From an uncultured Candidatus Saccharibacteria bacterium (GTDB taxonomy: Bacteria > Patescibacteriota > Minisyncoccia > Phycocordibacterales > PALSA-1337): a stretch of DNA of 54,037 nt. The notes beneath the pieces are model-generated. The model did not search any database. It worked only from the letters and a program-made list of their open reading frames with translations, and was not told the origin of the DNA. Shown here piece by piece: positions 18,310-36,773 of the stretch (its first letter is position 1; each line of letters starts with the position of its first letter). Location of the stretch: the NCBI GenBank assembly GCA_964576745.1, contig CAZNUY010000003.1, positions 1-54,037 of the forward strand, read 5' to 3'. The position numbers were made by a program, and so were the translations under genes.

Positions 18310-18326
18310 GATCTTAATTTCTAATT

Positions 18327-18348
18327 TTGTGACCCTACGGGGAGTCGA
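18327..18348. repeat. distal att-like direct repeat (copy of tRNA-Glu 3' end)
   Basis: Identical to 36710-36731. Confidence 0.85.
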
Positions 18349-18500
18349 CCTCGCCTCTCACTCGCTACCCGCTCGTTCGGGCTGGTCACCGGCTCGGCTG
18401 TTTCGCTTGCTAGCGAAACATGCCTCCGCCGTTCGCCTCCCCGACGCTCGCGCGCAGGCGCGAGCTTAGGCTCACACTCGCTACGCTCGTGTGACCTATT
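18349..18500. other. G+C-rich ORF-less structured module with a split reverse complement of the tRNA-Glu 3' end around a GCAG-loop hairpin
   Basis: ttcgcctccccg (18432-18443), AC, hairpin gctcgcgc-GCAG-gcgcgagc (18446-18465), T, taggctcaca (18467-18476), then the degenerate target gtgtgaccta (18489-18498). Confidence 0.6.
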
Positions 18501-18584
18501 AGCTTGGCTTTCAGAACTTACTAAACAAAGAGATTATATCAATTTGGCTCTAACTAATCTATCAGGTATTCTTGCTGAATAAAG

Positions 18585-18606
18585 TTCACGACGTTCACAC
18601 GTTCAC
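18585..18606 (+). repeat. three TTCAC iterons (spacing 9 and 8 bp)
   Basis: TTCAC at 18585, 18594 and 18602. Confidence 0.6.
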
Positions 18607-19109
18607 TCTATTTTTCTCCTATCTTTGTTTTTCTTTCTTTCCTCTCTTCGGATTCGTCTCTCTTCAGCTTTTTTCTCTTCTGCCTCTTTTCGAGCCTTCA
18701 TCTCTTCAGGAGTGACTACTCGCATATAATTCATGATCTTATAACCCTTTAAGTGCTCGAATGGATCAACGAATCTGTACCACTTTTCCATATGGGTATA
18801 ATCCTTTCCATCTTTTTCTCTCGTCTTAACCGAGTGAGATTTCAATAAATCTTTTGGTGGTAAAAAGTCCTTGTTGTCTTCAATGAGAAAGAGTTGTGCG
18901 TGAGTGCCCTTACCGTAGTAACTTATAGTTCGAGCTTTGAGAATACCTTCTTTAACCCATCTTCGAATGGTAACTGCCTTGAGCTCAAAGTTATATTCCA
19001 AATCAAATTCGCTATACCAACTATCCTTATCCTTTGCGAGAGAAGCTGGAATCTCTCCTTCATCAATTGCTTTCTGACAAACAAGACACTTTATTCCATA
19101 TTCGTCATA
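18603..19109 (-). CDS. HTH (excisionase/MerR-like) DNA-binding segment with Lys/Arg/Glu-rich tail; same frame as 19110..19952 and separated from it only by TAG
   Basis: Motif AVTIRRWVKEGILKA. The frame is open from 19109 down to TGA at 18603. The ORF track starts at a TTG at 19001, and no ATG lies upstream. Confidence 0.5.
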   Translation of the reverse strand, partial: YDEYGIKCLVCQKAIDEGEIPASLAKDKDSWYSEFDLEYNFELKAVTIRRWVKEGILKARTISYYGKGTHAQLFLIEDNKDFLPPKDLLKSHSVKTREKDGKDYTHMEKWYRFVDPFEHLKGYKIMNYMRVVTPEEMKARKEAEEKKAEERRIRREERKKNKDRRKIE

Positions 19110-19952
19110 CTAATTGTCACCTTCATTCATAATAGAGTGACCGCAAATAAAACAACGATAACCACGACCTTCGAGATGGAACCCTTTAGGGTTAGCCTTT
19201 AATTTCTCCTGAAGTATTTTTTCTTTCTCCTCCCATTCTTTCACAATTTTCCCCATGTTTTCCAATCTCCATTTTTGATCCCGATATTCGGCACCTTGTT
19301 CATCTGTTAGACAGAAACGATCCCGATCCTTAGCAAAATCAGCATCAAATTCATCATCCTTTTCTTTTGCGTGTCTCCATTCGTATTCATCAGTTTCTGT
19401 GTAGCCACATTTCGGGCAAGAGTTAGTTGTTATAACCTTTTTATCATCATCTTTTCTCCTTGTTTCGAGAGGAGTGCTGCAATGCAGACATAGTATGGGT
19501 TTAACTCTCCACTCTTCACCATCTGAAAAGAAAGCTCTGCGAGGAAGACATTTATTTGGGCAGTCATACATAAATAAAACACGATCAGGTTTTTCAAGAT
19601 CGGTCCAAAGGTCTTTGAATGTCACCTTCATTCTATTTCGGCATGTAAGGCAACGAATATCTTCTGGTGCTTGAGCTGAAGCGTAAAAATCATCTCTCTG
19701 CTTATCTTTATCCATCCATTCCTGAATAGTTTTATTTCTATTTAAATATCTTTCTCCCTTCGTAATATTAAGAGATAGTTTTTTAGCATAAGCTTCAGCA
19801 GCAGCTGCATCTTCTTCACTAATTGAGCCATCTTCAGGAAGAGGCTTTTTTGATTCCGTAAAGAATTTTTCTATACGCCGACACTCTTCTACAGTGTGTC
19901 TGTCATAGAGATCGGAATAATATTGTTTAGATTTAAGATGTGGTTCTGACAT
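19110..19952 (-). CDS. multi-zinc-ribbon protein (three CxxC...CxxC units, the last one completed only downstream of its TAG stop)
   Basis: 280-aa ORF; CLTCRNRM..CPNKC, CLHCSTP..CPKCG, CFICGHS then TAG. Confidence 0.6.
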   Translation of the reverse strand: MSEPHLKSKQYYSDLYDRHTVEECRRIEKFFTESKKPLPEDGSISEEDAAAAEAYAKKLSLNITKGERYLNRNKTIQEWMDKDKQRDDFYASAQAPEDIRCLTCRNRMKVTFKDLWTDLEKPDRVLFMYDCPNKCLPRRAFFSDGEEWRVKPILCLHCSTPLETRRKDDDKKVITTNSCPKCGYTETDEYEWRHAKEKDDEFDADFAKDRDRFCLTDEQGAEYRDQKWRLENMGKIVKEWEEKEKILQEKLKANPKGFHLEGRGYRCFICGHSIMNEGDN

Positions 19953-19957
19953 AGAAT

Positions 19958-22810
19958 TTATTCATCTTCTTGTTCTTTTTTCAGCATTTTCCTCTTCTCC
20001 AATTCTGCCTGATGTTCTTTCTCACTAGCTGCTATCATCTGTTTTAAGATAGTCACTGTTTCGGCAATAAATCTCTGACCTTTCTTTGAGCTAGTATTGT
20101 TAGCAAGAGCCTCTATTTCATTCACCTTGGCTTGCCATGCCTTACCAAAAAGATTTTCGCCAGCTGGGCCACTTACTGATCCAACATTTGTAAGATACCC
20201 TTTAAGAGTTCGTATGAGGTCTTTGTCATCTGTGATTTCAACTAGCCTGAGACAAAATTGAATATCAATGGAATCAAATTTCGGTAGTAATTCAATAGCT
20301 TCTGCAATTTGTTTTTTCTTACCACTCAACACGAGATCGTAGATAATTTCTTGAGCAATAGAAGGTGCAAACGAATCCAGAAGGCTGGAAAGGTTGTAGC
20401 TAAAGACAGAAATCTTTCCTAAATGCTTTTTACTCCAAACTTTTACTATTTCTTTTACTTTGTCAGTATTCTTTTCAAAGAGTGGTTTAAGTTCGTCTGC
20501 GTGTCTCGGAATAGCCTGATAATAGTGACCTAATTCAAAGGTTTTTGAGGATTTCTGTTTTTCAAGCATTCTTCGGTAGAGGACATCCATAAATAGCTCA
20601 AAATCAACTTCCCCTAAGGCAATTAAAATTTCAGTACCGTGGTGTTCTAAGGAAGAGACCTTTACTAATAGACCAGCAAAATGTTCTAAATCCACTTTTG
20701 GCCAGTCGGATAATGAGAGCATTCCGTCTCTTAAAGCAAAATCTATGGTCATCAAATTTAAAATAACCTGGTCTGGATAATTTTTCAGTAACTCAAGAAA
20801 AATCTTTCGACATTTTCCGGGGTCTAAGGCTGATATTCTGAAAACCCCATATAGGACATAGTAAAAATTTGGATATTTTAAGGGGAGCGCTTCAAAATCA
20901 AATTTATCCTTTCTAAATATAATATTTTCAAGAATTGAAATGTCTTCAGGAGAAACTTTGTCTACATTTCCTTTATCTAAATATATAAAGGAGGCAGCGA
21001 TAGCGACTGCAAAGTCAGGCTGCTTCTTGTGTGATAGAAAATCGATAACCGAATCTAGGATTGCACGATTGCCGCTATTTCTAATTCCACCTATGAGCTC
21101 TGCCAATTTTGTAGATAAAGGCAGATTACTTTGGACCGACTGCTCGATTAGTTTTTTTGCTACATTAGGTTTAGTTTTACCTACATCAACTAGAAAAGTC
21201 TTAAAATTGACGAGACCGTTTAATGGTTCCAACTCGCTCATTTTTGCAACATCAGACAAATCTTTCAGGTACTTTTTCAGATTCCCTTCCGAAATTGTTT
21301 GTACATGCTTGTCTATGGCTTCTTTCCATTCTCGATCTACTGTTTGATAGTCGTCTTCGTCTCGCAATTGAAAAGCTTGGCCGATGAGAAGACGATATAA
21401 ACCATATATTCCTTTATCATTTTGAAGTCTTTCTAAAAGCTTTCCAACTGGTGGAACGCTACCGCCATGAACCCTCTTCATCCAACCGAGCTGCTGCTCT
21501 AGCTTTAAGACAATTGGAGATTCAACAATAATTTTATTATCTTCGAGGATAATATTTGTAATTTCTTTGATGAAAAATCTCACATCACCTTCAATCATTT
21601 TCTGCGCTTTTTCTTTTTGTTCATCAGGACCAATTTCATGAGATACATGAGTAGAGTGCAGTATTATCTCTAAAATCTTCAGTTTATCCTGAACCTTAGC
21701 TATCTTGAACATAGAGATAAGTTCAATAACCACTTTTCTTCTAAATTTTGCTAAGTAGGGACTTGCATTTAGTGGTCCTCGGTGGAAAACCATCGTAATA
21801 TCATCTCTCATTGAAGTCCCATCATATGAAGGTTCAAGTAAAGATTCGTAAACAATTTTTAGGGTATCAATGTTGCTGATCTTTTCCTTGATGTCATGGG
21901 TTTCCAGAAAAGCATGCACAGCTTCTTGAGGACCATATCCCAAAGAAATTAACGCATGGTAATTATATGCGGCAACATGCTTCATTTTCTCAATAAGTAC
22001 ACTCTGAATGTTTTTATTAATTTCTATTTTGGAAAAAGAATATAAAAGATTAAAAACCTCCTTTGGCTCGAAGTATCGAATTACATCAAGAGCTTCTATG
22101 TATACTTTAAGCACTCTCTCATTTGCTGGAGAATTGTTTGCTTCAGATAGTAACTTTTGTCCGATAGATAGAATATGTGGAACAACTAGATGTTCACCTT
22201 TAACAGAACGATAATGAGCTAATTTCTCAAGGGTTTTTATTCTTTCAATTAGCACTTCTGGAGCAAGATAACCAACATCTTTTTGGTCAGCAAGTAAATC
22301 CTTTATAAGATGATCGTTCGTTTTATTGAAATGATGATTACATATGTCTTTCCACTCCTTGAGATAAGAATCGTCACCCTTCTTTATAATATTTTTCCTA
22401 TTAAAATATAATCTCTTTTCAGCAGGAACATTGCTTTTACCTAATATAGTTGCAGCTGTCTCTTTGCTTAAATAAAGCCAATACGCTACTTGTTCCGTAG
22501 GGTCAACTGCAATAAATAAAAGTGGTAAGTTGGAGGAAGCTGCATAAGCTAGCAGTTTGGATGGACATAATGAGAATGGGGCTTTAGTTTTCTTGGCATA
22601 GGAAAGCGGCTTGATTTGCACTTCCAAATTCAAACCAGTTGTTTCTCTTTTTGAGTTGAGGAGTTGTAAGTGTCCATCTGTATCCGGATATGTATCATCT
22701 CCCGATGTGAGCTTTTCTATTAACTTGTCAGATAAAATCTGCTTGAGAACGCCAATTTCCTGTTTTTCTATTGCTTTGCTTTTTGAGTAAACTGAGCGTT
22801 TGATTGCCAT
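19958..22810 (-). CDS. 950-aa protein: N-terminal DUF4365-like PD-(D/E)xK nuclease fold plus about 800-aa alpha-helical repeat region
   Basis: YPDTDGHLQL ... LEVQIKPLS ... PLLFIAVDPTEQVAYWLYL pattern. The rest is helical with no recognisable motif. Confidence 0.55.
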   Translation of the reverse strand: MAIKRSVYSKSKAIEKQEIGVLKQILSDKLIEKLTSGDDTYPDTDGHLQLLNSKRETTGLNLEVQIKPLSYAKKTKAPFSLCPSKLLAYAASSNLPLLFIAVDPTEQVAYWLYLSKETAATILGKSNVPAEKRLYFNRKNIIKKGDDSYLKEWKDICNHHFNKTNDHLIKDLLADQKDVGYLAPEVLIERIKTLEKLAHYRSVKGEHLVVPHILSIGQKLLSEANNSPANERVLKVYIEALDVIRYFEPKEVFNLLYSFSKIEINKNIQSVLIEKMKHVAAYNYHALISLGYGPQEAVHAFLETHDIKEKISNIDTLKIVYESLLEPSYDGTSMRDDITMVFHRGPLNASPYLAKFRRKVVIELISMFKIAKVQDKLKILEIILHSTHVSHEIGPDEQKEKAQKMIEGDVRFFIKEITNIILEDNKIIVESPIVLKLEQQLGWMKRVHGGSVPPVGKLLERLQNDKGIYGLYRLLIGQAFQLRDEDDYQTVDREWKEAIDKHVQTISEGNLKKYLKDLSDVAKMSELEPLNGLVNFKTFLVDVGKTKPNVAKKLIEQSVQSNLPLSTKLAELIGGIRNSGNRAILDSVIDFLSHKKQPDFAVAIAASFIYLDKGNVDKVSPEDISILENIIFRKDKFDFEALPLKYPNFYYVLYGVFRISALDPGKCRKIFLELLKNYPDQVILNLMTIDFALRDGMLSLSDWPKVDLEHFAGLLVKVSSLEHHGTEILIALGEVDFELFMDVLYRRMLEKQKSSKTFELGHYYQAIPRHADELKPLFEKNTDKVKEIVKVWSKKHLGKISVFSYNLSSLLDSFAPSIAQEIIYDLVLSGKKKQIAEAIELLPKFDSIDIQFCLRLVEITDDKDLIRTLKGYLTNVGSVSGPAGENLFGKAWQAKVNEIEALANNTSSKKGQRFIAETVTILKQMIAASEKEHQAELEKRKMLKKEQEDE

Positions 22811-22887
22811 ACATTATTTTTACATATACATTCATAGTCTTAGTTAAAGCGGATTTTAGCATTTTTTAGGCTTAAAATAAAGAAAAA

Positions 22888-22917
22888 TCGCACCTGCTGC
22901 CGAAGCTACAGGTGCGA
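22888..22917 (-). terminator. intrinsic terminator after purM (symmetric hairpin with A/T runs on both sides)
   Basis: tcgcacctg ... caggtgcga form a 9-bp stem, flanked by aaaaa and attttt. Confidence 0.6.
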
Positions 22918-22942
22918 GTATTTTTCAGGAACTTGTTCGAAC

Positions 22943-24046
22943 TCATCGAACCGCCAGCGTCTCGCCCGCGTACTCGAGACCTTTCGGCTTGATGACGACT
23001 TTCTTGTCGCCGTTCTCGATGTGCCCGGCAGCCAGAGCCTTGAGGCCGAGCTGTTGCGTCACCCCGAGAACTTTCTCGACGTCGGCTTCCGCCACGTAGA
23101 GCGCAAACCCTGCGCCCATGTTCAGGTTGCCGTAGGCTTCCTGATCATCGACCGGTCCATGCTCCTGGATGAAGCTGAAGATCGGAAGCTGCGTCGGAAG
23201 CGTGTCGATCATGTAGGCGAAAGGCTGCGTTGCCCGCATGAGCTTGCGCCAGCCGTGGCCGGTGACGTTCACCGCGTAGTGAATATCAACGCCTGCATCG
23301 AGGCAGTCTTCGACGAGGCCGACGTAAATGTGTGTCGGATCGAGAAGTGCTTCGCCGTAGCTTCGGCCGTCAGAGAGTTTCGTGAGATACCCGTCCGGCA
23401 GCTTATCGGCAATCTTGCGCGCGAGCGTGAGCCCGTTCGCATGGATACCCGAGCTTTCGACAATCACGATCATGTCGCCGTGAGCGATCTTACCGATGAT
23501 CAGACGCTCCTTCGGCTTCACGATTCCAATCGCGGAACCGGAGAGCACAACGGCTTCCGGAACCACGACACCCTTGAGAGTCGGCGTTTCGCCTCCGCCC
23601 CAAGTGCAGCGGGCCAAGTCGCAGGCTTTCTTCCAGCCGTTGACCAGATCGCGGGTGCGGTTCTCGTCATTGAACCAGTCTGAGACGCCGACTGCGAGAT
23701 GCATGGCGACCGAGAGAGGCAATGCGCCGAGTGTCACCAGGTCATTCACGATCATGGCGACCGTGCACTGAGCGACATGGTCGTAATACGATTTGCCGGT
23801 GAGGGCATACATCGCGTCCGCGACCAGGTTCTTGGTGCCGAGGCCTTCCTCCACATGAGCGAAGTAACTTTTAGCCGCTTCGATCAGGTAGGCGCTTTCG
23901 CCTCGTGAGGGTTCGAACTCCCGGAACTCGCCGCCATTGAGACGAGCGATGTTGCCAGCTGTTTCTCGCGCAGCAAGCTGCGCCATCCGTTTGAATGGGT
24001 CCATGGCATCGTAATTGACACCGGTACCCGCGTAGGTCATGTTCAT
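22943..24046 (-). CDS. purM: AIR synthase (PurM) family, phosphoribosylformylglycinamidine cyclo-ligase-like
   Basis: 367-aa G+C-rich ORF; EEGLGTKN (DGVGTK-like) and PurM-type N- and C-terminal domain layout. It is a divergent subtype. Confidence 0.7.
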   Translation of the reverse strand: MNMTYAGTGVNYDAMDPFKRMAQLAARETAGNIARLNGGEFREFEPSRGESAYLIEAAKSYFAHVEEGLGTKNLVADAMYALTGKSYYDHVAQCTVAMIVNDLVTLGALPLSVAMHLAVGVSDWFNDENRTRDLVNGWKKACDLARCTWGGGETPTLKGVVVPEAVVLSGSAIGIVKPKERLIIGKIAHGDMIVIVESSGIHANGLTLARKIADKLPDGYLTKLSDGRSYGEALLDPTHIYVGLVEDCLDAGVDIHYAVNVTGHGWRKLMRATQPFAYMIDTLPTQLPIFSFIQEHGPVDDQEAYGNLNMGAGFALYVAEADVEKVLGVTQQLGLKALAAGHIENGDKKVVIKPKGLEYAGETLAVR

Positions 24047-24090
24047 GTGTTGCTCCTTTTCTTTTGTGAAATGTTCAGATGCTGAACGTG

Positions 24091-24118
24091 ATATTACTTA
24101 AAATTTGACAAAAAGCAA
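24091..24118 (-). promoter_or_regulatory. sigma-70-like promoter of purM (TTGCTT, 16 nt, TAATAT)
   Basis: Plus strand atatta at 24091-24096 and aagcaa at 24113-24118. The whole module is nearly identical to the one upstream of purD. Confidence 0.55.
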
Positions 24119-24129
24119 ATAAAATAGGC

Positions 24130-24150
24130 CTACGATTTTTTAGGTCGTAG
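24130..24150 (-). terminator. weak hairpin terminator after purD
   Basis: ctacga/tcgtag stem with an A/T-rich loop and flank. Confidence 0.3.
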
Positions 24151-24177
24151 ACCATTTTGAGTTGGAGCAACACAACT

Positions 24178-25494
24178 TCATACTCCGAGAGACTTCGCGC
24201 CGATGTCCTTGCGATAATGCGCTCCTTCGAAATGAATGCACTCGACTCCGTTGTAAGCGTGATCGAGAGCTTCCTGAAGAGTTGCACCGAGTGCGGTGAC
24301 ACCGAGAACACGACCACCGGCAGTGACGAGCTGGCCATCAGCCTGTTTGGTCCCTGCATGGAACACGACGACGCCCGGAAGAATCTCGGCGTTATCGATG
24401 CCTGTGATCGGCAAACCTTTCTTGTAGTCGGGCGACGGATAGCCGCCAGACGCCATCACGATGCAGGCAGCGAAGCCGGGGTTCCACTCGACGTTAATCT
24501 CATGGAGCCGTCCATCAGCACATGCCTCGAAGATGTCGAGCAGATCAGTTTTCAGAAGTCGCATGTAAACCTGGGTCTCCGGATCACCGAATCGGGCGTT
24601 GAACTCGAGCACCGACAGGTCCCATTCGGGAACTGCTGGTGGATCGTTTCTCCGGACTTTGAGTCCCGGATAGAGTAAGCCAACAAACGGCGAGCCTTTT
24701 CCACGAAGACCTTCGAGGATCGGACCGACAATCTGTTCACCTGCAGCATCGTGGCTCACGAACCACGGCACCGGAGCAATCGTTCCCATTCCGCCGGTAT
24801 TCGAACCCTTGTCGCCGTCGAAGACAGGCTTATGGTCCTGAGCCGAGGGAAACATCTTGAACGACTTACCGTCGCAGAAGGCGTGGATTGAAACTTCTTG
24901 TCCTCCAGCGAACTCCTCGACAATGACTTCATCGCCGGCGCTTCCATGGAGCTTCTTGACCATGATCTCATCGAGAGCTTGTTCGGCTTCTGCGAGATCG
25001 TGGCAGACGTATGCCCCCTTTCCGAGAGCGAGACCCGATGCCTTCACCACGATCGGCAAACCTTGGTAGGCCGCGAAGTGGCGTCGGACATGTTCGAGTG
25101 CCTGCGTATGGTCAGTGTAAACATCGAAGTGCGAGGTTGGCACGCCTGAATCTTTCATGAGGCGTTTCGAGAACACCTTCGATGCTTCGATCTGCGCTGC
25201 GGCTTTGCTCGGACCGAAGATCTTCAGTCCTTTTGCCTGGAACGCATCAACGATGCCGAGCGCCAGCGGATCATCCTGACCCACAATGGTGAAATCAATT
25301 CCTTCCTTGAGTGCGAAGGCCAAGAGACCGTCCACATCCGTCGCTTTCACTGGGACGTTTTCTGCGATCTGTGCCGTGCCAGCATTGCCGGGGGCAACGT
25401 AGAGTTTTCCGAGACGTGGCGACTGATGAAGCTTCCATCCAATGGAATGCTCACGACCGCCACCACCAACGAGTAGTACTTTCATCTGGTTCAT
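24178..25494 (-). CDS. purD: phosphoribosylamine-glycine ligase (GAR synthetase)
   Basis: 438-aa ORF; MKVLLVGGGGREHSIGWKL N-terminus and ATP-grasp layout. Confidence 0.9.
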   Translation of the reverse strand: MNQMKVLLVGGGGREHSIGWKLHQSPRLGKLYVAPGNAGTAQIAENVPVKATDVDGLLAFALKEGIDFTIVGQDDPLALGIVDAFQAKGLKIFGPSKAAAQIEASKVFSKRLMKDSGVPTSHFDVYTDHTQALEHVRRHFAAYQGLPIVVKASGLALGKGAYVCHDLAEAEQALDEIMVKKLHGSAGDEVIVEEFAGGQEVSIHAFCDGKSFKMFPSAQDHKPVFDGDKGSNTGGMGTIAPVPWFVSHDAAGEQIVGPILEGLRGKGSPFVGLLYPGLKVRRNDPPAVPEWDLSVLEFNARFGDPETQVYMRLLKTDLLDIFEACADGRLHEINVEWNPGFAACIVMASGGYPSPDYKKGLPITGIDNAEILPGVVVFHAGTKQADGQLVTAGGRVLGVTALGATLQEALDHAYNGVECIHFEGAHYRKDIGAKSLGV

Positions 25495-25542
25495 GACTTG
25501 GTTCTCCTTTTCTTTTGTTAGAGGTTCTGTGTTCTGAGGCTG

Positions 25543-25570
25543 ATATTACCTAAAATTTGACAAAAGGCAA
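25543..25570 (-). promoter_or_regulatory. sigma-70-like promoter of purD (TTGCCT, 16 nt, TAATAT)
   Basis: Plus strand atatta at 25543-25548 and aggcaa at 25565-25570. Confidence 0.55.
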
Positions 25571-25585
25571 TAAAAATTTGAAAAG

Positions 25586-25613
25586 TTGCAAAAAAGATAT
25601 TTTTAATTAATAT
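25586..25613 (+). promoter_or_regulatory. sigma-70-like promoter of purN (TTGCAA, 16 nt, TAATAT), divergent from the purD promoter
   Basis: ttgcaa at 25586-25591 and taatat at 25608-25613; RBS taggagatagg before the ATG at 25653. Confidence 0.5.
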
Positions 25614-25652
25614 TCTTTTTAGATCATCAAACCAAATATAGGAGATAGGCAC

Positions 25653-26324
25653 ATGAGCAAATCGAAAGTTCTTGTCTTCGCGTCAGGGTCGGCTGAAGGT
25701 GGCGGATCGGGCTTTGAAAAGCTCATCCTTGCTTCCCGAGGTGGACCACTTGATGCAGACATCGTCGCAGTTGTTTCAAATCATGCAAACGGAGGAGTGC
25801 GTGCTCGGGCAGATAAGCTCGGCGTTCCCTTCCTCCACTTCCCGAAGCCATGGACCGCAGAAGCGTATCAAAAGTTCGCCTCCGAATCCGGTGCAGACTT
25901 CTTTGCGCTCTCCGGCTGGCTGAAATTGGTGACCGGACTCGATCCGGTTACCCGATTCAATTCACGGACTGTCTTCAACATTCATCCCGGACCACTTCCG
26001 GACTTTGGTGGTCCGGGACTGTATGGGCATCATGTCCACGAAGCAGTCATCGCAGCTTTCGGCCGGCGCGAGATCACACACTCGGCTGTTTCGATGCATT
26101 TCGTCACCGGCGAATATGATCGCGGACCGGTTTTCTTCCGGTGCAACGTCAAAATCAACGGAGACGATACAGCCGACACGATTGGCACCCGGGTCAATCA
26201 GCAGGAGCATATCCATCAGCCGAAAATCACCAGCATGGTGGTAAACGGTCTGATCAAGTGGGATGGAATCAATCCCGATTCGCTCCAAGTTCCGGAAGGA
26301 TACTCGGTCGAATGCTTCGCCTGA
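25653..26324 (+). CDS. purN: phosphoribosylglycinamide formyltransferase
   Basis: 223-aa ORF; VLVFASGS...NIHPGPLPDFGG formyltransferase motifs. Confidence 0.85.
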   Translation: MSKSKVLVFASGSAEGGGSGFEKLILASRGGPLDADIVAVVSNHANGGVRARADKLGVPFLHFPKPWTAEAYQKFASESGADFFALSGWLKLVTGLDPVTRFNSRTVFNIHPGPLPDFGGPGLYGHHVHEAVIAAFGRREITHSAVSMHFVTGEYDRGPVFFRCNVKINGDDTADTIGTRVNQQEHIHQPKITSMVVNGLIKWDGINPDSLQVPEGYSVECFA

Positions 26325-26345
26325 TTTACGCGCATGCGCATCATC

Positions 26346-26380
26346 ATGAGCGGTTCTGAAAAACGGACCGCTCATTTTTT
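26346..26380 (+). terminator. intrinsic terminator after purN
   Basis: tgagcggt / accgctca form an 8-bp stem followed by tttttta. Confidence 0.6.
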
Positions 26381-26402
26381 ATTTGAAATTAAGCAATTTT
26401 TG

Positions 26403-26430
26403 TTGCTTAAAGTCTAATTTTGAGTAATAT
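26403..26430 (+). promoter_or_regulatory. sigma-70-like promoter of purL (TTGCTT, 16 nt, TAATAT)
   Basis: ttgctt at 26403-26408 and taatat at 26425-26430. Confidence 0.5.
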
Positions 26431-26506
26431 GACGACTAGATAGCACCTCTCGGAGGTGCATTGTTTTTTGTCATCCCAAACGTAAACAACAAAAGAAGGA
26501 GAAGCC

Positions 26507-29500: not shown

Positions 29501-30331
29501 ACGCTTCCGGAAGTTTTGGAAGCGTCGGACAAGCCTTGCGTGGCAGTTTTACGCGAGGAAGGCACCAACGGCGACCGAGAAATGCTGGCTGCCTGTGCAG
29601 CTGCCGGTTTTGCTCCATGGGAAGTCACGATGAGTGATCTCCTTGAAGGCAGGATCGATCTGGATCAGTTCCAGGGCATCATCTTTGCCGGAGGGTTCTC
29701 CTACATGGACGTGTTCGACAGTGCAAAAGGCTGGGCAGGAACAATTCTTTTCAACGAGAAGTTGAGGGAGATGTTCAACCGTTTCTACGCCCGCGAGGAT
29801 ACGTTCTCGCTCGGCGTGTGCAACGGCTGTCAGCTGATGGCGCTGCTCGGATGGGTTCCCTGGAAAGGAATCGCCGGTGAAAAGCAGCCGAGATTCGTTC
29901 ACAACACTTCTGGCCGGTTTGAGTCTCGATGGGTGCAGGTGGAAGTTCTACCTAGCCCGTCGGTGCTTCTTGCCGGCATGGAAGGATCGAGGATCGGCGT
30001 GTGGGTCGCTCATGGTGAAGGTCTGCTGGTCTACCCAGATCAGTCGATCGCGCAGGAAGTTGCAGAGCGCAAGCTCTCTCCTCTCGCATACCTTGATCCG
30101 CACGGCAATCGGACGGAAGCATATCCGTACAATCCGAACGGCTCGCCGCTGGGGATTACGGCTCTGTGCTCTCCGGACGGGCGCCATCTTGCGATGATGC
30201 CTCATCCAGAACGTTGTTTCCGTTTGTGGCAATGGCCTTGGAAGCCAAACTCATGGAAAAGCCTCGAGGCTTCCCCATGGCTCCGAATGTTTCAGAACGC
30301 CAGACAATGGTGCATGGAACACCGGGCCTAG
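26507..30331 (+). CDS. purL: single-chain (large) phosphoribosylformylglycinamidine synthase
   Basis: 1274-aa ORF; TAETHNHPT and DNSAVGRGG synthetase motifs; C-terminal glutaminase GVCNGCQLM and MPHPER. Confidence 0.93.
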   Translation: MIYRMYRQMDSGLELGFYVETTGQLSEPELQQLQWLIAETFEPAKTGLEPSLTADVVEIGPRLSIETPFSSNAVSICQAMGLGRITRIERTHRYAGNGSSDHILKTRLDRMTEQHYPSGIETFDTGVSPDDVRVIDLIGRGKAALEEMNSALGLGMDARDLEYYQHLFAEVLKRNPTDVELFQLGNANSEHSRHWYFKGQIVIDGTPMQETLFEIVQRPLKNLGSENCSLVAFRDNAGVIQGFGTRLILPVTPGKPSEMRLMEKVIHITCTAETHNHPTFVAPFPGAQTGAGGRIRDNSAVGRGGIVGIGVAGYFVGNLFIPGHEIPGEAIGKDKPSKYASPLSILIEGSNGVSSYGNQFGEPLTLGFTRTYGQMIGKEWREPRKPILYSGGVGHLFDGHTAKETSEVGMLIVRIGGPAYPIGVGGGSASSMMQGQNTETLDFNSVQRGNAEMENRANRVIRACVEMGDSNPISSIHDQGAGGPSNVLTELLEPLGGKISIRGIVLGDKTMSVLKIWSAEFQEGYGLLIRPEQIELFKSICKRERVNCEVLGEIDGSGNVVVEDSLNGTTPVSLNLEQILTNMPQKTFESNRRTEGLKPLDLPDVTVAEALEKVFRLPSVGSKGFLVHKVDRSVTGLVSQQQCCGIAQIPIANVSVNAQSHFGLSGSASAVGEQPVKMLIDPKAGARMAVAEMFTNMASARISGIGDIRCRANWMWPAKLPHEGALLYDAAVAMSDLMVGLGIAVDGGKDSLSMAATISGELVKAPGSLVILGYAPVSDITKKVTPDIKKPGASSLALIDLGQGKNRLGGSALAQAFNQLGDKSPDVENPKLLKNAFLAVQQMIGEGLILSLHDRSDGGLITAVAEMCMASRCGFNVSIPHAAEALAVLFGEEPGFVIELETVNEKRIVEICESFEVPISTIGITLDSTSCVVDAKDAGELFRSTVMELRSWWEATSAKIEELQMNSACAEEEYSGHEDQLPGIGTAPSYQLSFAPVETLPEVLEASDKPCVAVLREEGTNGDREMLAACAAAGFAPWEVTMSDLLEGRIDLDQFQGIIFAGGFSYMDVFDSAKGWAGTILFNEKLREMFNRFYAREDTFSLGVCNGCQLMALLGWVPWKGIAGEKQPRFVHNTSGRFESRWVQVEVLPSPSVLLAGMEGSRIGVWVAHGEGLLVYPDQSIAQEVAERKLSPLAYLDPHGNRTEAYPYNPNGSPLGITALCSPDGRHLAMMPHPERCFRLWQWPWKPNSWKSLEASPWLRMFQNARQWCMEHRA

Positions 30332-30354
30332 GGATATGTTCCAAAGCCAATCCT

Positions 30355-30392
30355 GACCCCTTGCGTAGCAATGCGCGAGGGGTCTTTTATTT
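30355..30392 (+). terminator. intrinsic terminator after purL
   Basis: gaccccttgcg / cgcgaggggtc form an 11-bp stem (one G-U pair) followed by ttttattt. Confidence 0.65.
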
Positions 30393-30416
30393 AGATTCAA
30401 TTATATTAAAGCGACA

Positions 30417-30430
30417 TTCACAACATTCAC
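30417..30430 (+). repeat. two TTCAC iterons, 9-bp spacing
   Basis: TTCAC at 30417 and 30426. Confidence 0.6.
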
Positions 30431-30559
30431 AGTACATGGGGAAATTTAGGGAAAAAAGTGCCAAAAAGGAGCTCTTTTTCGCTCTATTTGGCCTAGGAGT
30501 GCACCTATTTTCACCTTTTTGCACTAGCGATTTGGAAAATTGCTGATGTTGCTATAACA

Positions 30560-30582
30560 TTCACAATATTCACGATGTTCAC
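30560..30582 (+). repeat. three TTCAC iterons, 9-bp spacing
   Basis: TTCAC at 30560, 30569 and 30578 (acattcaca atattcacg atgttcacg). Confidence 0.7.
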
Positions 30583-31813
30583 GTCCGAGGCTCGGCAGAC
30601 TGCCTCTATGAAGATGAAAATGACCATGTTAATGACATATTTACCTGAATGGAAAATCTATCTATGGAGAAAACTTTTATTGGAAGAAGAGAGTAATTTT
30701 AATGATCCTATCCTGCTCACTAGGTTCGTATTCTTTACTGAAATAGAACAACGACAAGAAACACGTAAGCGTCTGCTGCACTCCATTGATAGCCTGAACA
30801 ATGCCAAAAACGCTGCTCTAGTAACTAGATCACCAATGCTGATTGCTGATGGCAATCACACATCTCATACCGACGCTTACTATTCCTCTTATCCAAAGAA
30901 AGTAGGCTTGGCTCTTATCGAATTAGCAGAAAGTGATCCTGTTGCAATAAAGATTGAGAAAATAAATCTAAAGAAGGGTGATAAAAACAAAGATGTTACC
31001 GTTTCTGAACTGAAAGAGTTTCTTACTCCCTCATCAGATGTAATTTCTTTTGAGTACCTACAACTCAAAATAAAACTTGATAAAAAGGCTCTTGAGAAAA
31101 GACTAGGCACCTATCTGGATGCCTTCAGGGAAGGTGCTCTCCTTGCTGGACCAGACATTCGTTATTACTTCTTTGAAAAGCAGAAAGAAGATATTACTCG
31201 GTCCCTTCAGAATATGGCTAAAAAGTATGGAAATAAGAACATCACATTCACTTTAGATGAATTGGCCAAGAAAGGTGGATGGTATCAAAGAGACGAAAGA
31301 AACTACCGTCCTTTTGAAACCCTTTTTACACTGGAAAAACTGGGAGAGCTTGAGATTCATGACCTAAGAAAACATGAGATCATTCTTTCATTGAAGAAAT
31401 ACCTTTCGGCCGAGACTAAACAGTCTGCAGCTGGACCATCTATTCAAAAATCAGCTATTGAATCCATAAAATCAATTACTTTCATCTCTGAAAATAAGAA
31501 AGCAGATAAGGTGTCTTCTTTCTATATCAATCACCACATTCACGATGTTCACAAAATGCAGCGTTTGAGTGGTGAGGTCCGCAAATTAGCCAGGGTTGCA
31601 GCTGGTGAAGAAGTACCTTTTGAGAAGCAGACCCATGACTATATAAACACAAACAAGAATTGCGTACTCTATCGCAATGGCAAATATAAGCTGACCAAGA
31701 TCATTGACGGTCACAGCAGACCTCTCAAAATCAGTCGTGGCATCGAAGTAGAAATTATTGATGACAAGGTATTTAAGCGAAGACTAGCTGCAGCCGATAA
31801 AAACTCTGCTTAA
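30575..31813 (+). CDS. hypothetical island protein; start uncertain (the annotated ATG lies inside the iteron array; a later Met run MKMKMTM is possible)
   Basis: 412-aa ORF with AT-rich, host-like composition and no recognised motif; contains an internal iteron cluster at 31530-31552. Confidence 0.5.
   Translation: MFTSEARQTASMKMKMTMLMTYLPEWKIYLWRKLLLEEESNFNDPILLTRFVFFTEIEQRQETRKRLLHSIDSLNNAKNAALVTRSPMLIADGNHTSHTDAYYSSYPKKVGLALIELAESDPVAIKIEKINLKKGDKNKDVTVSELKEFLTPSSDVISFEYLQLKIKLDKKALEKRLGTYLDAFREGALLAGPDIRYYFFEKQKEDITRSLQNMAKKYGNKNITFTLDELAKKGGWYQRDERNYRPFETLFTLEKLGELEIHDLRKHEIILSLKKYLSAETKQSAAGPSIQKSAIESIKSITFISENKKADKVSSFYINHHIHDVHKMQRLSGEVRKLARVAAGEEVPFEKQTHDYINTNKNCVLYRNGKYKLTKIIDGHSRPLKISRGIEVEIIDDKVFKRRLAAADKNSA
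31530..31552 (+). repeat. three (A/T)TCAC iterons, 9-bp spacing, inside a CDS
   Basis: ATCAC at 31530, TTCAC at 31539 and 31548. Confidence 0.5.
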
Positions 31814-31874
31814 AGCAAGCTTAATCTTGCCGAAAGCCTGAAATCCCTTACAGCAGGGGCTTTTTTGTTATTGC

Positions 31875-31902
31875 TTTAAGAGCTATTTAAGCGTGCTTTA
31901 AG
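31875..31902 (+). promoter_or_regulatory. three TTTAAG direct repeats at 11-bp phasing, candidate operator upstream of 31964
   Basis: TTTAAG at 31875, 31886 and 31897. Confidence 0.35.
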
Positions 31903-31963
31903 TTTATCTCCGGACCTACGATGTAAGCAGATTTTTGCGAAATCTTTTATCAAAAATAATTAA

Positions 31964-32248
31964 ATGCTTATGAGAAAACATGTAACCAAGGTCCCGTTAG
32001 ATGACAATGAAAAATATCTGTCGAATGACATTGATGTAGCAGTAACGCTGCTATGCAAAGGCTATACCCTCGAAGATATTAAACTTCTTACCAATAAAAA
32101 GGCTACTTTCGTATTCAAAGATCATCCAGCTATTAAGGCTGCAGTTGATGGCTTTTGGAGTAACCGGATAGAAGTCCATCCTCTTGAGTTTGCGAATATT
32201 CGCAAGAACTTAAAATCACGCATTTACGCAATGCAGAAAGATTACTAA
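31964..32248 (+). CDS. DUF5659-like small protein
   Basis: 94-aa ORF. The pattern LLCKGYTL..I......ATFVF.D...I..AV..FW........P.EF.N..K.LKSRIY recalls DUF5659 (from memory). Confidence 0.5.
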   Translation: MLMRKHVTKVPLDDNEKYLSNDIDVAVTLLCKGYTLEDIKLLTNKKATFVFKDHPAIKAAVDGFWSNRIEVHPLEFANIRKNLKSRIYAMQKDY

Positions 32249-32263
32249 ACCAAATAAACAAAA

Positions 32264-33634
32264 ATGTATATGAATAATTACGAAGAACGAAAAGATAGAC
32301 CTATCTTTAAAACTACACTTTTGACTGGTGATGCTCTCTACGAAATGGTATACAGTCCGGTCCAGAAGAAAAGCTCCTATATCAAAACGGACCGACTTGG
32401 ACATACGGAAAACCTGGAGGAAGTAGAACTTGATGGTTATAAATACAGACCCTTGCCGCCAACCTATACCCTTGTAGACAAAAAGATTATTCACTTCCCA
32501 TCAATGGCAGCTTCTTACGAAAGCGAGGAAGAGATCTTAAATGAAATCAGAATCTTCATTCATAAGTACTTGGATATTTCTGAAATCTTTGAGCAGATCG
32601 CTAGTTATTACGTGCTCTTTACCTGGCTATTTGATCGCTTTAATGAGGTCCCATATCTCCGAGCCATTGGTGACTTTGGAAGTGGCAAATCACGCTTTAT
32701 CCAAGCAATAGGCATGCTTTGCTATAAACCGATAATGACTTCAGGCGCTACTGGCAGCGCTCCAATTTTCAGAATCCTAAGCCAGATACAAGGCACTCTA
32801 GTCATGGATGAAGCAGATTTCAAGTTTTCGGATATGACTTCTGAAATGATTAAAATCTTGAACTCTGGGTATCAGAAAGGAACTGCTGTTATGCGATGTA
32901 ATCCAAAAACTTTTGATCCAGAAGCATTTGATGTGTATGGTCCTAAGATTATTGCTACTCGTGAGACGTTTTCTGATAAGGCTCTTGAGAGTAGATTCTT
33001 GGTTGAGGAAATGGGTGCAGGAAAATTAAGGACCGACATTCCGAGAACACTAGATGAGACGTTCTATTCTGAAGCTGAAGCAATTAGAAATAAGCTACTC
33101 ATGTGGAGACTGAAGAATTATTTTGCTCCAATCGAAAGACGAACAGAAATTATCGAGGGTATTCATCCTCGACTAAATCAGATCGTGATTCCTCTCATGT
33201 CCATCATCAAGAATGACACCATTCGAGAGCACCTAAAGACATTCATCATTAAATACAACAGTGAGTTAATAGCTGATCGAGGTCTTACGTGGGAAAGTGA
33301 TATTGTTTTTGCAATTCTCAAGATTGAGCACGAAACAGGAGCTAGTGAGGTTACAGTCAAAAAAATAACCGAGGAAGTGAATAAAGAAAGTGACATCACT
33401 GACGACACTCTCCAAGCCAGGAAAGTGGGCTGGTATCTTCGCTCCAAATTACAACTAAAGTCATACAGAGGCAGACACGGTTTTACTCTTTCTTTTAAGG
33501 TAAATCGTAAGCGATTGGATATGTGGAAGGAACGCTTCGGTATTACCGATGCAGATATTCGAGGTGAACAAGTGAATGTCGTGAACGATGTGAACGTGCA
33601 GGAAGAGATTAAGCCAGAAGAAATAGCATTTTAA
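32264..33634 (+). CDS. P-loop NTPase (possible replication/mobilisation helicase-type ATPase of the island)
   Basis: 456-aa ORF; Walker A GDFGSGKS and Walker B LVMDEADF; the C-terminus is encoded by inverted iterons. Confidence 0.6.
   Translation: MYMNNYEERKDRPIFKTTLLTGDALYEMVYSPVQKKSSYIKTDRLGHTENLEEVELDGYKYRPLPPTYTLVDKKIIHFPSMAASYESEEEILNEIRIFIHKYLDISEIFEQIASYYVLFTWLFDRFNEVPYLRAIGDFGSGKSRFIQAIGMLCYKPIMTSGATGSAPIFRILSQIQGTLVMDEADFKFSDMTSEMIKILNSGYQKGTAVMRCNPKTFDPEAFDVYGPKIIATRETFSDKALESRFLVEEMGAGKLRTDIPRTLDETFYSEAEAIRNKLLMWRLKNYFAPIERRTEIIEGIHPRLNQIVIPLMSIIKNDTIREHLKTFIIKYNSELIADRGLTWESDIVFAILKIEHETGASEVTVKKITEEVNKESDITDDTLQARKVGWYLRSKLQLKSYRGRHGFTLSFKVNRKRLDMWKERFGITDADIRGEQVNVVNDVNVQEEIKPEEIAF
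33564..33594 (-). repeat. four TTCAC iterons in inverted orientation (GTGAA on the plus strand), spacing 8, 9 and 9 bp
   Basis: GTGAA at 33564, 33572, 33581 and 33590. Confidence 0.6.
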
Positions 33635-33652
33635 AAACCTAACTTAAATTTT

Positions 33653-34177
33653 ATGGAAAACAATCAAAATAAAGGTGGTCCAAAAACTCCTGAAGGAAAA
33701 GCTGTATCAAAACTTAACGCTCTCAAACATGGAATTTTGAGCCAGGAAGTGATGGTTGAGGGAGAAGATGAGAATACTCTCAAAAGTCTTAGTGAAGCTC
33801 TTATAGACGAACTGAAGCCTGGAGGACCGATTGAAGAGATGTTGGTGGACCGAATTATCTCTAGCCTATGGCGACTACGCCGATCCGTATCGGCCGAGAG
33901 GAACGCAATGGAATATATCAAAAATGAAGGTTTTCTTCTGGCTGGAATTGATGGTGTTTTTGATCCAAAACAAGACGCTCGTATCAAAGCCAAGAATATG
34001 CTTACCCATGAAGGGATTGAGACAATCTTACGCTACGAGACAACTATTGAAAGAAGTCTCTTAAAAGCGCTGCATGAACTAGAAAGAATCCAGGCTAAGA
34101 GAAGTGGTAAAGACGTTCCTCTGCCATCTGTGCTGGATGTGAATATTGATAGTTCGTTTGGCAAAAACGACCTGTAA
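33653..34177 (+). CDS. hypothetical protein (N-terminal GGPKTPEGKAVSKLNALKHGILS motif)
   Basis: 174-aa ORF in the co-oriented island gene string. Confidence 0.5.
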   Translation: MENNQNKGGPKTPEGKAVSKLNALKHGILSQEVMVEGEDENTLKSLSEALIDELKPGGPIEEMLVDRIISSLWRLRRSVSAERNAMEYIKNEGFLLAGIDGVFDPKQDARIKAKNMLTHEGIETILRYETTIERSLLKALHELERIQAKRSGKDVPLPSVLDVNIDSSFGKNDL

Positions 34178-34222
34178 ATATGGAGAATCCTTAATGATTT
34201 CGGCAGAAATATTGAAATTGAT

Positions 34223-34798
34223 ATGAGAAAGAACGAAGCTGACAACTACAAGAAAATACAGATATGGTGGCTTTTACGAGATATAAAGACAGGTCACAAA
34301 AATACCACTCTTACCTGGGGTGAGAATGGGTCCGATGGGAGTATAAATGTTGGTGTAATGCTGGTGGGTCCTGATAAATATGCTCGATTGACGTATAGCC
34401 AGACAGACAGGACCGGAAAGAATACAGACTTTGATTATAAGGTCCCAATTATTGAAACTCCCTGTAACTTTGGTAGCACTCGTTATTGGTTTAAGTGTCC
34501 ACTTATGAAAGATGGCCAACTATGTGGCCGACGTGTGGGCGTGCTCTATAAAGTCGATGATTATTTTGGCTGCCGGCATTGCTACAACCTCACTTACAGA
34601 TCACAAAATATAAATCGCAGGGATAAACTCTTCCCAATATTTAAAGCCTTTGAGATAGGAAAGAAAATGGAAAAACTCGGTGAGGCTAAGCGCTACACCT
34701 ACAAAGGAAAACTCACAAAGAAATTTAAGAAGCTGCAACAACTAGAAGAACAATCACTTGCAAACATCCAGAGCATTGCAGCGATGGAAAGACGCTAA
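34223..34798 (+). CDS. hypothetical Cys-rich (zinc-ribbon-like) protein
   Basis: 191-aa ORF; CNFGSTRYWFKCP...CGRRVGVLY...CRHCYNLTY. Confidence 0.5.
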   Translation: MRKNEADNYKKIQIWWLLRDIKTGHKNTTLTWGENGSDGSINVGVMLVGPDKYARLTYSQTDRTGKNTDFDYKVPIIETPCNFGSTRYWFKCPLMKDGQLCGRRVGVLYKVDDYFGCRHCYNLTYRSQNINRRDKLFPIFKAFEIGKKMEKLGEAKRYTYKGKLTKKFKKLQQLEEQSLANIQSIAAMERR

Positions 34799-34802
34799 CA
34801 CT

Positions 34803-35045
34803 ATGGAAAATAATTTATCAAATAATTCCAATACTGATCCTAAAACACCAACTCTTTCAAAAGTTGATTCAGAAACTGTGGATAAAAGTTCTGAAAAGCG
34901 TGCAAAGGGGTATATTCTTTCTGACGAAACTTTCAGAGCTTTGACGGATTTAGGCGATATTTTGAGAAGTATCCATCAGGACATGATTGATGAGGGGTAC
35001 GAGTTCGTTGATGGGACAATCCAGAAGAAAATTGATAAAATTTAA
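34803..35045 (+). CDS. hypothetical small protein immediately upstream of the recombinase
   Basis: Internal ATG (MENNLSNN...) of ORF 34758..35045, chosen to avoid overlap with the preceding gene. Confidence 0.4.
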   Translation: MENNLSNNSNTDPKTPTLSKVDSETVDKSSEKRAKGYILSDETFRALTDLGDILRSIHQDMIDEGYEFVDGTIQKKIDKI

Positions 35046-35048
35046 GTA

Positions 35049-36773
35049 ATGAAGATGAATATGAAAGATGAGGAAAAACTATTTAAAGACATTGAGAACG
35101 GAAAATATCGTGAGTTCTATTTGGTCTATAATCGAAAAAGCACTGATGAACCTGACAATCAAAAGAACTCTATTTCATATCAAAAGAATCAGAATGTCCG
35201 ATTTGCAAAGTTAGAAGGATTGCCACTAGCGCCTCTCACCCTCAAAAGTTTTTGTGCAGACGGCATTATTTCAGAAAAACATTCAGGCTTTAAGGAAGAT
35301 AGTGAGATTACTATCACGAATGAGGGATTGGTCCAATATAAAATCGAGAGACCAAAATTCCAGAAACTTTTAATGTATTTAAGCCGAGGACTTTTTAAGG
35401 GTATTGTTTGTCTTTGTTGGGACCGAGTAAGTAGAAATAAAGGTGATGATACGGTTGTAAGAAAGCTTATGAAGAATGGCATTGATGTTCGGTTCGTCTT
35501 TGCCAAATACGACAAAACTAGCTCTGGTGAACTTCATATGGACATTGATGGCATGTTCTCGCAGCATCACTCACGAGTAACAAGTGAAAAAGTGTCTTTA
35601 ACAATTAAGCACGCTAGAGAGAAAGGTAAATGCACTAACCGAGCTCCTATCGGTTATCTCAATGAAGGAAATATGGATTATAAGCCGCTGGACCCTGAAA
35701 GAGCGCCCATAATCCGTAGACTTTATGAGCTTTATAGTACCGGAGATTGGAGCTTATCTGATCTAGCTCGATATGCAAATGAGCAAGGCTTAACTACCGT
35801 TGCTATGAGACGTAAGAGAACAGAGGAAGAGAAACTCGCTGAAGAGGAAGATGATAATTTGATAGATATTCCAAAAGTATCTCGTCCAATTACCCAAAAT
35901 CATGTTCACCGGATGCTGACTAGTCCATTTTATATTGGAATGGTCCCTGCTGGTAATGGAAAACATACTCGAAGTTCAAGCCATCAACCATTAGTACCGG
36001 TAAATCTTTTTAATGATGTACAGCAACTATTAAGAAAGAACAAAACGAGTATTCACTATACTGAAAAGTTAGACCTTCCATTACGAGGGTTGGTTCGATG
36101 CGCTCTGTGTCAACGAATTTATACTCCTTACGTGAAAAAAGGCATTACTTATTACAGTTCACGATGTGTTGCTGGTTGTGAGAATAAGACTAAAAATTTT
36201 AATTTCGATTATATTGCTGACAAAATTGGTGAAAAGATAGCAAAACTTCACTATACCGAAGACGAACTAGCTGAAATGGATGCTCGCAGCAGTACCCAAA
36301 TATCTTTATTGGAAGAAAAACGATCAACGAAAATAGAAGAGATGGAAAGAAAGAAGAAAGTTCTTCGTGAGCAACTAAAATATATTAGGGTTGATAGACT
36401 TCCGCTTTTACATAGTGGGGCTTATACACCTGAAGGTATTGTGGCTGAGGAAAAGAGACTTGAAGGAGAGATTGCAGCACTAATGACTGACGAACAAGTT
36501 TCAGAGGAAGCAATGTCAGAAACAGTGAAGGACATAACGCAACTTTCAGAACTCCTAAAAAGGTCCGTACCTTATTACGATTTTGCAAAACCACACAAAA
36601 AAGAGTTGATTGCCCGTTGTATCTTTTCAGAACTCTTGTTGTCCGGAGATACGTTGCAACATAAGGTTAAAAAAGGATTTGAGGCCTTTGAAAACCGTTT
36701 TGTTGCGAATTGTGACCCTACGGGGAGTCGAACCCCGATTACAGCCTTGAGAAGGCCGTGTCCTAACCATTAG
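35049..36773 (+). CDS. large serine recombinase (integrase)
   Basis: 574-aa ORF; resolvase-type catalytic region YLVYNRKSTDE...SYQK and CWDRVSRN; recombinase domain; zinc-ribbon CALCQRIY...; coiled-coil tail. The last 20 codons and the TAG stop are antisense to tRNA-Glu. Confidence 0.85.
   Translation: MKMNMKDEEKLFKDIENGKYREFYLVYNRKSTDEPDNQKNSISYQKNQNVRFAKLEGLPLAPLTLKSFCADGIISEKHSGFKEDSEITITNEGLVQYKIERPKFQKLLMYLSRGLFKGIVCLCWDRVSRNKGDDTVVRKLMKNGIDVRFVFAKYDKTSSGELHMDIDGMFSQHHSRVTSEKVSLTIKHAREKGKCTNRAPIGYLNEGNMDYKPLDPERAPIIRRLYELYSTGDWSLSDLARYANEQGLTTVAMRRKRTEEEKLAEEEDDNLIDIPKVSRPITQNHVHRMLTSPFYIGMVPAGNGKHTRSSSHQPLVPVNLFNDVQQLLRKNKTSIHYTEKLDLPLRGLVRCALCQRIYTPYVKKGITYYSSRCVAGCENKTKNFNFDYIADKIGEKIAKLHYTEDELAEMDARSSTQISLLEEKRSTKIEEMERKKKVLREQLKYIRVDRLPLLHSGAYTPEGIVAEEKRLEGEIAALMTDEQVSEEAMSETVKDITQLSELLKRSVPYYDFAKPHKKELIARCIFSELLLSGDTLQHKVKKGFEAFENRFVANCDPTGSRTPITALRRPCPNH
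36710..36731. repeat. tRNA-proximal att-like direct repeat
   Basis: Identical to 18327-18348; covers the last 19 nt of tRNA-Glu plus 3 nt. Confidence 0.85.

Follow-up and report, generated by a model that had tools for sequence, protein, structure and literature searches.

A large serine recombinase element in a probable accretion array at the 3' end of a Saccharibacteria tRNA-Glu gene

The 54,037-nt contig CAZNUY010000003.1 of an uncultured Candidatus Saccharibacteria bacterium (the entire contig is hereafter the window; the genome, G000, comprises 828 kb in 89 contigs) carries, behind tRNA-Glu(CUC), DNA that an initial annotation had described as one 18.4-kb island with a large serine recombinase (LSR) between two copies of a 22-nt direct repeat. 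Our analysis makes it highly probable that this locus is instead an accretion array, in which three insertions are stacked at the tRNA gene's 3' end. The newest unit is an LSR element of 18.2 kb (~18490-36717), bounded by an ordinary 7-nt serine-integrase core, TGTGACC. Beyond it lie a short non-coding cassette and an older cassette with a HEPN-like gene.

The tRNA-Glu(CUC) gene is intact at 36712-36784 on the minus strand (ARAGORN; Rfam RF00005, 60.6 bits) and forms the attB-derived side of attR. The initial annotation was right about the repeat itself, as TTGTGACCCTACGGGGAGTCGA is present in exactly two copies, at 18327-18348 and 36710-36731, and was matched in 0 of 100 shuffles. It was also right that the second copy is the genuine tRNA end, since this copy is the reverse complement of the last 20 nt of tRNA-Glu plus 2 nt beyond, and that mobile DNA with an LSR is inserted here, since relatives have empty sites. 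By contrast, the "unusual pairing", in which a serine integrase would go with a long repeat of tRNA type, did not survive: the junctions of the LSR element share only TGTGACC (18490-18496 and 36711-36717), while the left 22-nt copy is the tRNA-end copy that terminates the cassette. The TGTGACC at 18490 had been overlooked, as had the remnant of the LSR tail that follows it. The 22-nt repeat is not the footprint of the recombinase, so the pairing does not hold and the apparent anomaly disappears, leaving a canonical serine integrase with a short core. Stacked insertions at one tRNA can mimic a single island that bears a long repeat.

The evidence for these junctions comes from the LSR gene itself. 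In its prophage form it encodes 574 aa (35049-36773, plus strand) with a catalytic resolvase-type domain (PF00239, 52 bits against a cut-off of 23.3; motif YNRKS31T...Q; phrog_125 over residues 24-276), a PF07508 domain (50.9 bits, above cut-off) and a match to the integrase family phrog_95 (3.4e-52); a PDB sequence search with the protein gave no matches. The open reading frame (ORF) extends through the right repeat and ends in 20 codons of antisense tRNA sequence. When TGTGACC at 36711 is joined to 18490, an ORF of 585 aa is restored, ending in ...NCDLLAWLSELTKQRDYINLALTNLSGILAE before the stop codon. The native tail of 28 codons (LAWLSELTKQRDY...) is stranded at 18490-18582 on the plus strand, where the attL core runs into the orphaned LSR tail CDLLAWLSELTKQRDYINLALTNLSGILAE and its stop codon, and the 20 tRNA-antisense codons take its place at attR. 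The restored tail is homologous to the intact tails of homologues without an adjoining tRNA (...CDPIAWLSEV..., ...DPTDWLSEL...).

The same arrangement recurs throughout the family. A scan with one genome per species collected 80 LSR homologues of 48-78% identity, about 35 of which, mostly in Patescibacteria/Paceibacteria, end inside a convergent tRNA-Glu; the homologues of the same genus (57-62% identity) adjoin tRNA-Glu too, and in more distant ones tRNA-Val, Leu, Ala or Ser takes its place. Altogether, the LSR gene spans the junction in ~40 loci, with the orphaned tail marking the other end. By searching upstream flanks for the orphaned WLSEL tail, we resolved the far junction in ~14 elements, at 4.7-11.4 kb from the tRNA. 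The core common to attL and attR in these elements measures 4-15 nt and always contains GTGA (GTGGGC for Val and Leu); the comparison of attL and attR in 14 elements is the basis on which the 7-nt attR core of the window was placed at 36711-36717. Two LSR copies in genome G005 are not beside tRNA-Glu, and one of them (C42) has a longer C-terminus, ...YDPIGWLSELL.... Homologues in Bacteroidota, Pseudomonadota and other phyla likewise keep an intact ...DPxxWLSEL... tail. Among them, L059, L061, L080, L084, L092, L102 and others (50-57% identity, intact WLSEL tails) lie on large Bacteroidota or Alphaproteobacteria contigs, some of them from isolates. In the tree, the Bacteroidota and Alphaproteobacteria LSRs interleave with Patescibacteria copies, which suggests transfer between phyla. 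Tandem orphaned tails were seen behind one tRNA-Glu, four in L045:3376-6151 and two to three in L037:6-2179, which indicates repeated integration with decay of the older copies. The genome encodes a second LSR outside the window (contig C1:9527-11188; 540 aa, ~24% identity), which reads into a convergent tRNA-His and ends in ...EWGGYRESNPN; this gene also reads into a tRNA, so the layout in which the gene spans the attachment site is not confined to one clade.

Together these junctions define a large, mostly Patescibacteria-borne clade of serine integrases whose target is the tRNA 3' tip, whose attP lies in their own coding sequence and whose C-terminus changes on integration. Natural intact LSR genes and the two arms of the window alike have GTGACC between two inverted motifs, TTTGAAAACCG (codons FENRF) and TGGCTTTCAGAAC (codons WLSEL), which are kept even at synonymous positions. 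In the window, the putative P' half-site TGAAAACC lies within the FENRF codons (36689-36696, plus strand), and its inverted partner, the putative P half-site GGCTTTCA, lies within the orphaned tail (18506-18513). The last bases of the tRNA, read as their reverse complement, likewise give GTGACC. The consensus of the arms places TCaGAAC at +20 to +26 in the P arm, with the inverted motif in P', and TCGAAC of the T-loop at +16 to +21 in the tRNA (B) arm. Relative to attB, attP thus has its outer motif 5 bp more distant from the centre, although the functional assignment of these motifs is inferred. The T-loop TCGAAC would probably serve as the outer motif of attB, 5 bp nearer the centre than TCAGAAC in attP.

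A mechanism consistent with these observations can be outlined. The attP, of ~50 bp, would lie within the last codons of the LSR gene, with the reconstructed junction GTTTTGTTGCGAATTGTGACCTATTAGCTTGGCTT (TGTGACC joined to TATTAGC), and the predicted attB that retains the cassette would read ACTCGCTACGCTCGTGTGACCCTACGGGGAGTCGA. In several elements attL and attR do not have the same base to the left of GTGA, so we place the putative crossover within GTGA, at the discriminator end and thus the extreme tip of the tRNA gene. A TG dinucleotide at the geometric centre of attP was considered as the crossover and rejected, as in several elements attL and attR do not agree at this position. Integration would then split the LSR gene, leaving a prophage form that ends in 20 tRNA-antisense codons and a native tail of 28 codons at the far junction; the tRNA would remain intact, and a long duplication would be unneeded. 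Attachment sites as short and precisely predictable as these appear suited to the building of integrase tools.

The second unit of the array is independent of the LSR element. Its ORF-less, GC-rich body of 141 nt (18349-18489, minus strand) contains an antisense tRNA-end copy split by a GC hairpin (18432-18476). Read in tRNA sense from 18489 to 18349, it opens with a short linker and with 9 nt antisense to the acceptor 3' strand, followed by an A, the GC hairpin, GT, 12 nt antisense to the T-arm and a structured body ending in GAGAGGCGAGG, after which comes the 22-mer. The whole unit (18327-18489) thus combines the split antisense copy with a terminal direct copy of 20 nt, and its body is a "type 2" variant (CGCCGGAGCAT...GAGAGGCGAGG). 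Units of the same design follow tRNA-Gly, Lys, Arg and Ala and a partial tRNA on contig C8 of the genome, with arms that match their own tRNA, and the tRNA-Glu of genome G011 carries a parallel unit whose arms match that tRNA. An alignment of three cassette sequences revealed compensatory changes in the arms and hairpins. The layout in the window is that of the other ORF-less tRNA-end cassettes; the difference is that here the unit has the LSR element on one side and an older cassette on the other. In three other loci (G011, L038 and G014) the cassette separates the tRNA from an LSR remnant, or is present by itself. This order is opposite to that of the window, so cassettes and LSR elements go into one tRNA tip independently of each other, and the unit closest to the tRNA is the newest. 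In the window, the 141-nt cassette with its own tRNA-end copy of 20-22 nt would already have stood behind the tRNA when the LSR element arrived, and the 22-nt repeat would consist of the tRNA end and the terminal copy of this older cassette.

Besides tRNA-Glu, at least 6 of the 27 detected tRNA genes are followed by cassettes or short duplications of the tRNA 3' end. At tRNA-Gly two exact tandem units of 157 nt occupy window positions 1507-1834, a duplication unit of 64 nt lies behind tRNA-Phe, and further sites were found on contigs C11 (435-603 and 11136-11279), C43 (~40-453), C8 (~27230-27400) and C5 (28941-29005). Reverse transcriptases were considered as cassette movers and rejected: the seven matches carry the LGNLTSQ motif of the diversity-generating retroelement (DGR) type and have no link to tRNAs. 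Five to seven genes of ~350 aa with this DGR-type motif are located on contigs C1, C40, C54, C76 and C11.

The oldest unit (17703-18326, minus strand) is a HEPN-like cassette with an ORF of 175 aa (17782-18309), which ends ...GTCGAGG against a split tRNA-end copy. This third copy of the tRNA end (17703-17753) is split by an insert of 25 nt, and a similar split copy is present in L038. A similar insert, of 25-26 nt (T.AAT..GCA.AT.GACCTACT.GG), occupies the same site within the tRNA-end copy of two unrelated genomes (window 17716-17740; L038:~1911-1936). Just outside this copy lies a cluster of TTCAC iterons (17678-17700), in an order unlike the left-end layout of the LSR element.

An alternative is a single 18.4-kb serine-recombinase island with the two 22-nt copies as its attL and attR, the 141-nt GC-rich module as its own attP arm and a long identity block that restores the tRNA. 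The circle would then be joined through the 22-mer (...AATTGTGACCCTACGGGGAGTCGACCTCGCC... / ...GCGAATTGTGACCCTACGGGGAGTCGACCTCGCC), and the empty site, free of the cassette, would read TCTAATTTTGTGACCCTACGGGGAGTCGAACCCCG. The exactness of the repeat, an LSR frame that stays open through the module into the WLSEL tail and the same layout in L033 all fit this explanation. However, among the ~14 resolved elements only L033 and the window have a long copy of the tRNA end in the 400 nt outside the core, so that 12 of 14 lack it, and in L033 the frame through the module meets a stop. Modules are also found by themselves at other tRNAs, and next to LSR remnants on the side nearer the tRNA; a second, degenerate core lies exactly where all relatives have theirs; and the left 22-mer is separated from the true end of the element by the 141 nt of a cassette from an independent family. 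We therefore regard a single island as improbable.

Still less credible, in our judgement, is that a tyrosine integrase, lost or encoded elsewhere, inserted the whole interval and that the serine recombinase is cargo or a resolvase. Long duplications of a tRNA 3' end are the typical footprint of tyrosine-integrase islands, and the genome does encode one Xer-like tyrosine recombinase, its sole one (334 aa, contig C64). However, the search for a tyrosine recombinase remnant that the initial annotation had proposed found no PF00589 match in six frames of the window, and the LSR gene spans the junction, with its orphaned tail at the other end, in the ~40 loci described above. For the small cassettes alone, a tyrosine-integrase origin could apply. 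A chimeric assembly, named at the outset as a possible refutation, would mean that the G+C-rich purine block or the junctions were mis-joined in this metagenome-assembled genome, and it is the least probable explanation, to the point of being nearly negligible. The abrupt G+C jump from 35% to 58%, an estimated bin contamination of 8% and a second purM on contig C27 would agree with it, but independent Logan contigs of a single run (SRR6747782) are 100% identical to window positions 18336-23252 and 23573-36766, an extent that takes in both G+C jumps and attR. Moreover, the spacers within the purine block are host-like and A+T-rich, and genome G021 has a homologous block beside another serine recombinase.

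Several points weigh against the accretion array with a short-core LSR element as we have drawn it. The zinc ribbon of the LSR falls under the Pfam cut-off (PF13408, 18.9 bits against 25.3); CALC...CVAGC cysteines can be seen in the sequence, as can a charged helical stretch. The inverted repeat of attP has its geometric centre 1 nt to the left of the common GTGA, and the host-side (B') arm of attB has no conservation. The reading frame is also open through the cassette, giving an ORF of 639 aa, and a cassette-containing attP is possible for this copy. No contigs with an attP or attB junction were found in the genome's own assembly. For the cassettes, no mover enzyme was found, and there were no matches to IS110 or TnpB.

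Beyond the att site, the tail of the LSR keeps an amphipathic pattern while its sequence varies, which suggests, from sequence comparison, that the native tail has a role at the protein level in the free form. A speculative extension, which we consider possible but rather doubtful, is that the LSR exists as two isoforms, one on the free circle with a conserved amphipathic tail (WLSEL-x-K/R-x-R-D/E-Y-I..AI..L) and one in the prophage with a tRNA-antisense tail. The swap would act as a switch of directionality or stability, with one isoform integrating and the other excising or locking the element, and the T-loop would be an outer motif common to all targets, so that changes of core codons alone would let the family move from one tRNA species to another.

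The LSR element carries a co-oriented backbone on the plus strand. TTCAC iterons with 9-bp phasing lie just within its left end (18585-18606, plus strand), as they do in L118 and L119, and again ahead of the first backbone gene (30417-30430 and 30560-30582). Ten such repeats were observed against 0.1 expected, nine of them in or beside the island. The backbone starts with a protein of 412 aa that has no assigned function (30575-31813), followed by a DUF5659 protein (31964-32248) conserved in 17 loci and a P-loop NTPase of 456 aa (32264-33634) with 65-83% identity in 28 related loci. The NTPase has Walker A and B motifs (GDFGSGKS, VMDEAD) and more than 1,600 close homologues. Two of these are fused to Prim-Pol, and one of the two also to PriCT_1, so the P-loop protein is likely the helicase part of a replicative primase-helicase. 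A single-sequence AlphaFold model of this protein was discarded (predicted local distance difference test score, pLDDT, 33.5). Three small ORFs (174, 191 and 95 aa; 33653-35045, plus strand) complete the backbone ahead of the LSR gene; they are conserved in 12-40 related loci, they had no family matches, and one of them could be a candidate directionality factor. No virion genes (capsid, terminase or tail) were detected: PHROGs gave only the integrase and a weak Lar-like match, and Pfam and NCBIfam gave nothing structural. We read the element as integrative, moved by its own LSR and probably self-replicating, and it may still be active.

Related elements measure 5-11 kb and carry NUDIX, nucleoside deoxyribosyltransferase and methyltransferase genes in the slot where the window has its cargo; the window has the largest copy seen, which owes its size to the purine and defence-like genes. 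The defence-like part (18603-22810, minus strand) comprises two Zn-ribbon ORFs and a protein of 950 aa with a DUF4365 nuclease-like head. The purine part (22943-30331) contains purM and purD on the minus strand and purN and a large purL on the plus strand; these ORFs have 53-60% G+C, against a contig average of 38%, and are separated by A+T-rich spacers. Annotation and G+C content thus bear out the gene content first described for the interval, that is, minus-strand hypothetical and defence-like genes, a foreign purine block and a plus-strand module. The purine genes cover steps 2-5 of purine synthesis, and such elements carry nucleotide metabolism into bacteria generally without it. In G021, homologues of purL, purN and purM (73-83% identity) constitute the block mentioned above. 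The second purM of the genome (C27:3058-4161), a G+C-rich ORF on an A+T-rich contig, has 85% aa and 81% nt identity to the island purM and could be a paralogue or reflect a strain mixture in the bin.

Synteny with relatives, a check suggested together with the island, revealed empty tRNA-Glu sites in G013, G002 and G033, where a penicillin-binding protein (PBP) gene and murF precede tRNA-Glu(ctc) and unrelated genes follow, with neither LSR nor cassette; this comparison covers the murF-tRNA side, as synteny within the genus does not extend downstream of tRNA-Glu. Other members of the genus carry different LSR elements at the murF-tRNA-Glu site. Housekeeping genes had been proposed on both flanks, which is correct for the right flank (murF and the PBP gene) but doubtful for the left, where the SLOG-methyltransferase gene (14557-15837) is found in 0 of 40 genus genomes (E ≤ 1e-20), bar one partial match of 36% identity. 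No counterpart of the segment 14557-18309 (SLOG-methyltransferase, RibD_C-like, PEMT/ICMT-like and HEPN-like genes) exists in the 40 genus genomes, and the side downstream of tRNA-Glu looks hypervariable.

We found no report in the literature of a serine integrase with attP inside its own gene, nor of tRNA-targeting serine integrases in Patescibacteria, which does not prove their absence. A large-scale survey of serine recombinases left out sites whose identity blocks exceed 20 bp, and its main text is silent on tRNA (PMC10083194). For the tyrosine integrase of myxophage Mx8, attP lies within int, and the gene formed on integration is a recombinant whose 3' end is new and whose properties are altered (PMC6070905). 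The window resembles Mx8 in having attP in the integrase gene; it differs in having a serine recombinase and in taking the new tail from the antisense strand of a tRNA. The tycheposons of Prochlorococcus, as far as the available portion of their description goes, are likewise cargo-carrying and tRNA-associated, with site-specific integrases and replication genes (primases, helicases). However, nearly all of them use tyrosine recombinases, with a serine minority, no attP-in-gene layout is described in that portion, and the host phylum and backbone genes differ. Islands of the P4/ICE (integrative and conjugative element) type have a tyrosine recombinase near the tRNA and are bounded by a long repeat of the tRNA 3' end, whereas here no tyrosine recombinase was found among the island ORFs or in the six-frame search of the window, and the LSR element ends 141 nt within the long repeat, at a 7-nt core.

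There is a close likeness to the phage-type phiC31, Bxb1 and Listeria A118/LI integrases, which have the same Resolvase and Recombinase architecture (with a Zn-ribbon, here a putative one), a catalytic Ser and a short identical core. Integrases of the phiC31/Bxb1/A118 type also share the quasi-palindromic attP, with an outer motif ~5 bp further from the centre than in attB. In the Listeria integrase-attP work of Rutherford and Van Duyne from 2013, this spacing of outer motifs reportedly lets the integrase tell attP from attB. Unlike in those systems, the target here is the extreme 3' end of a tRNA, attP lies in the integrase's own coding sequence, and a small primase-helicase element that lacks capsid genes serves as the carrier. 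By its domains and short core, the enzyme is a canonical serine integrase, and it departs from the known ones in targeting a tRNA terminus and in carrying attP within its own gene.

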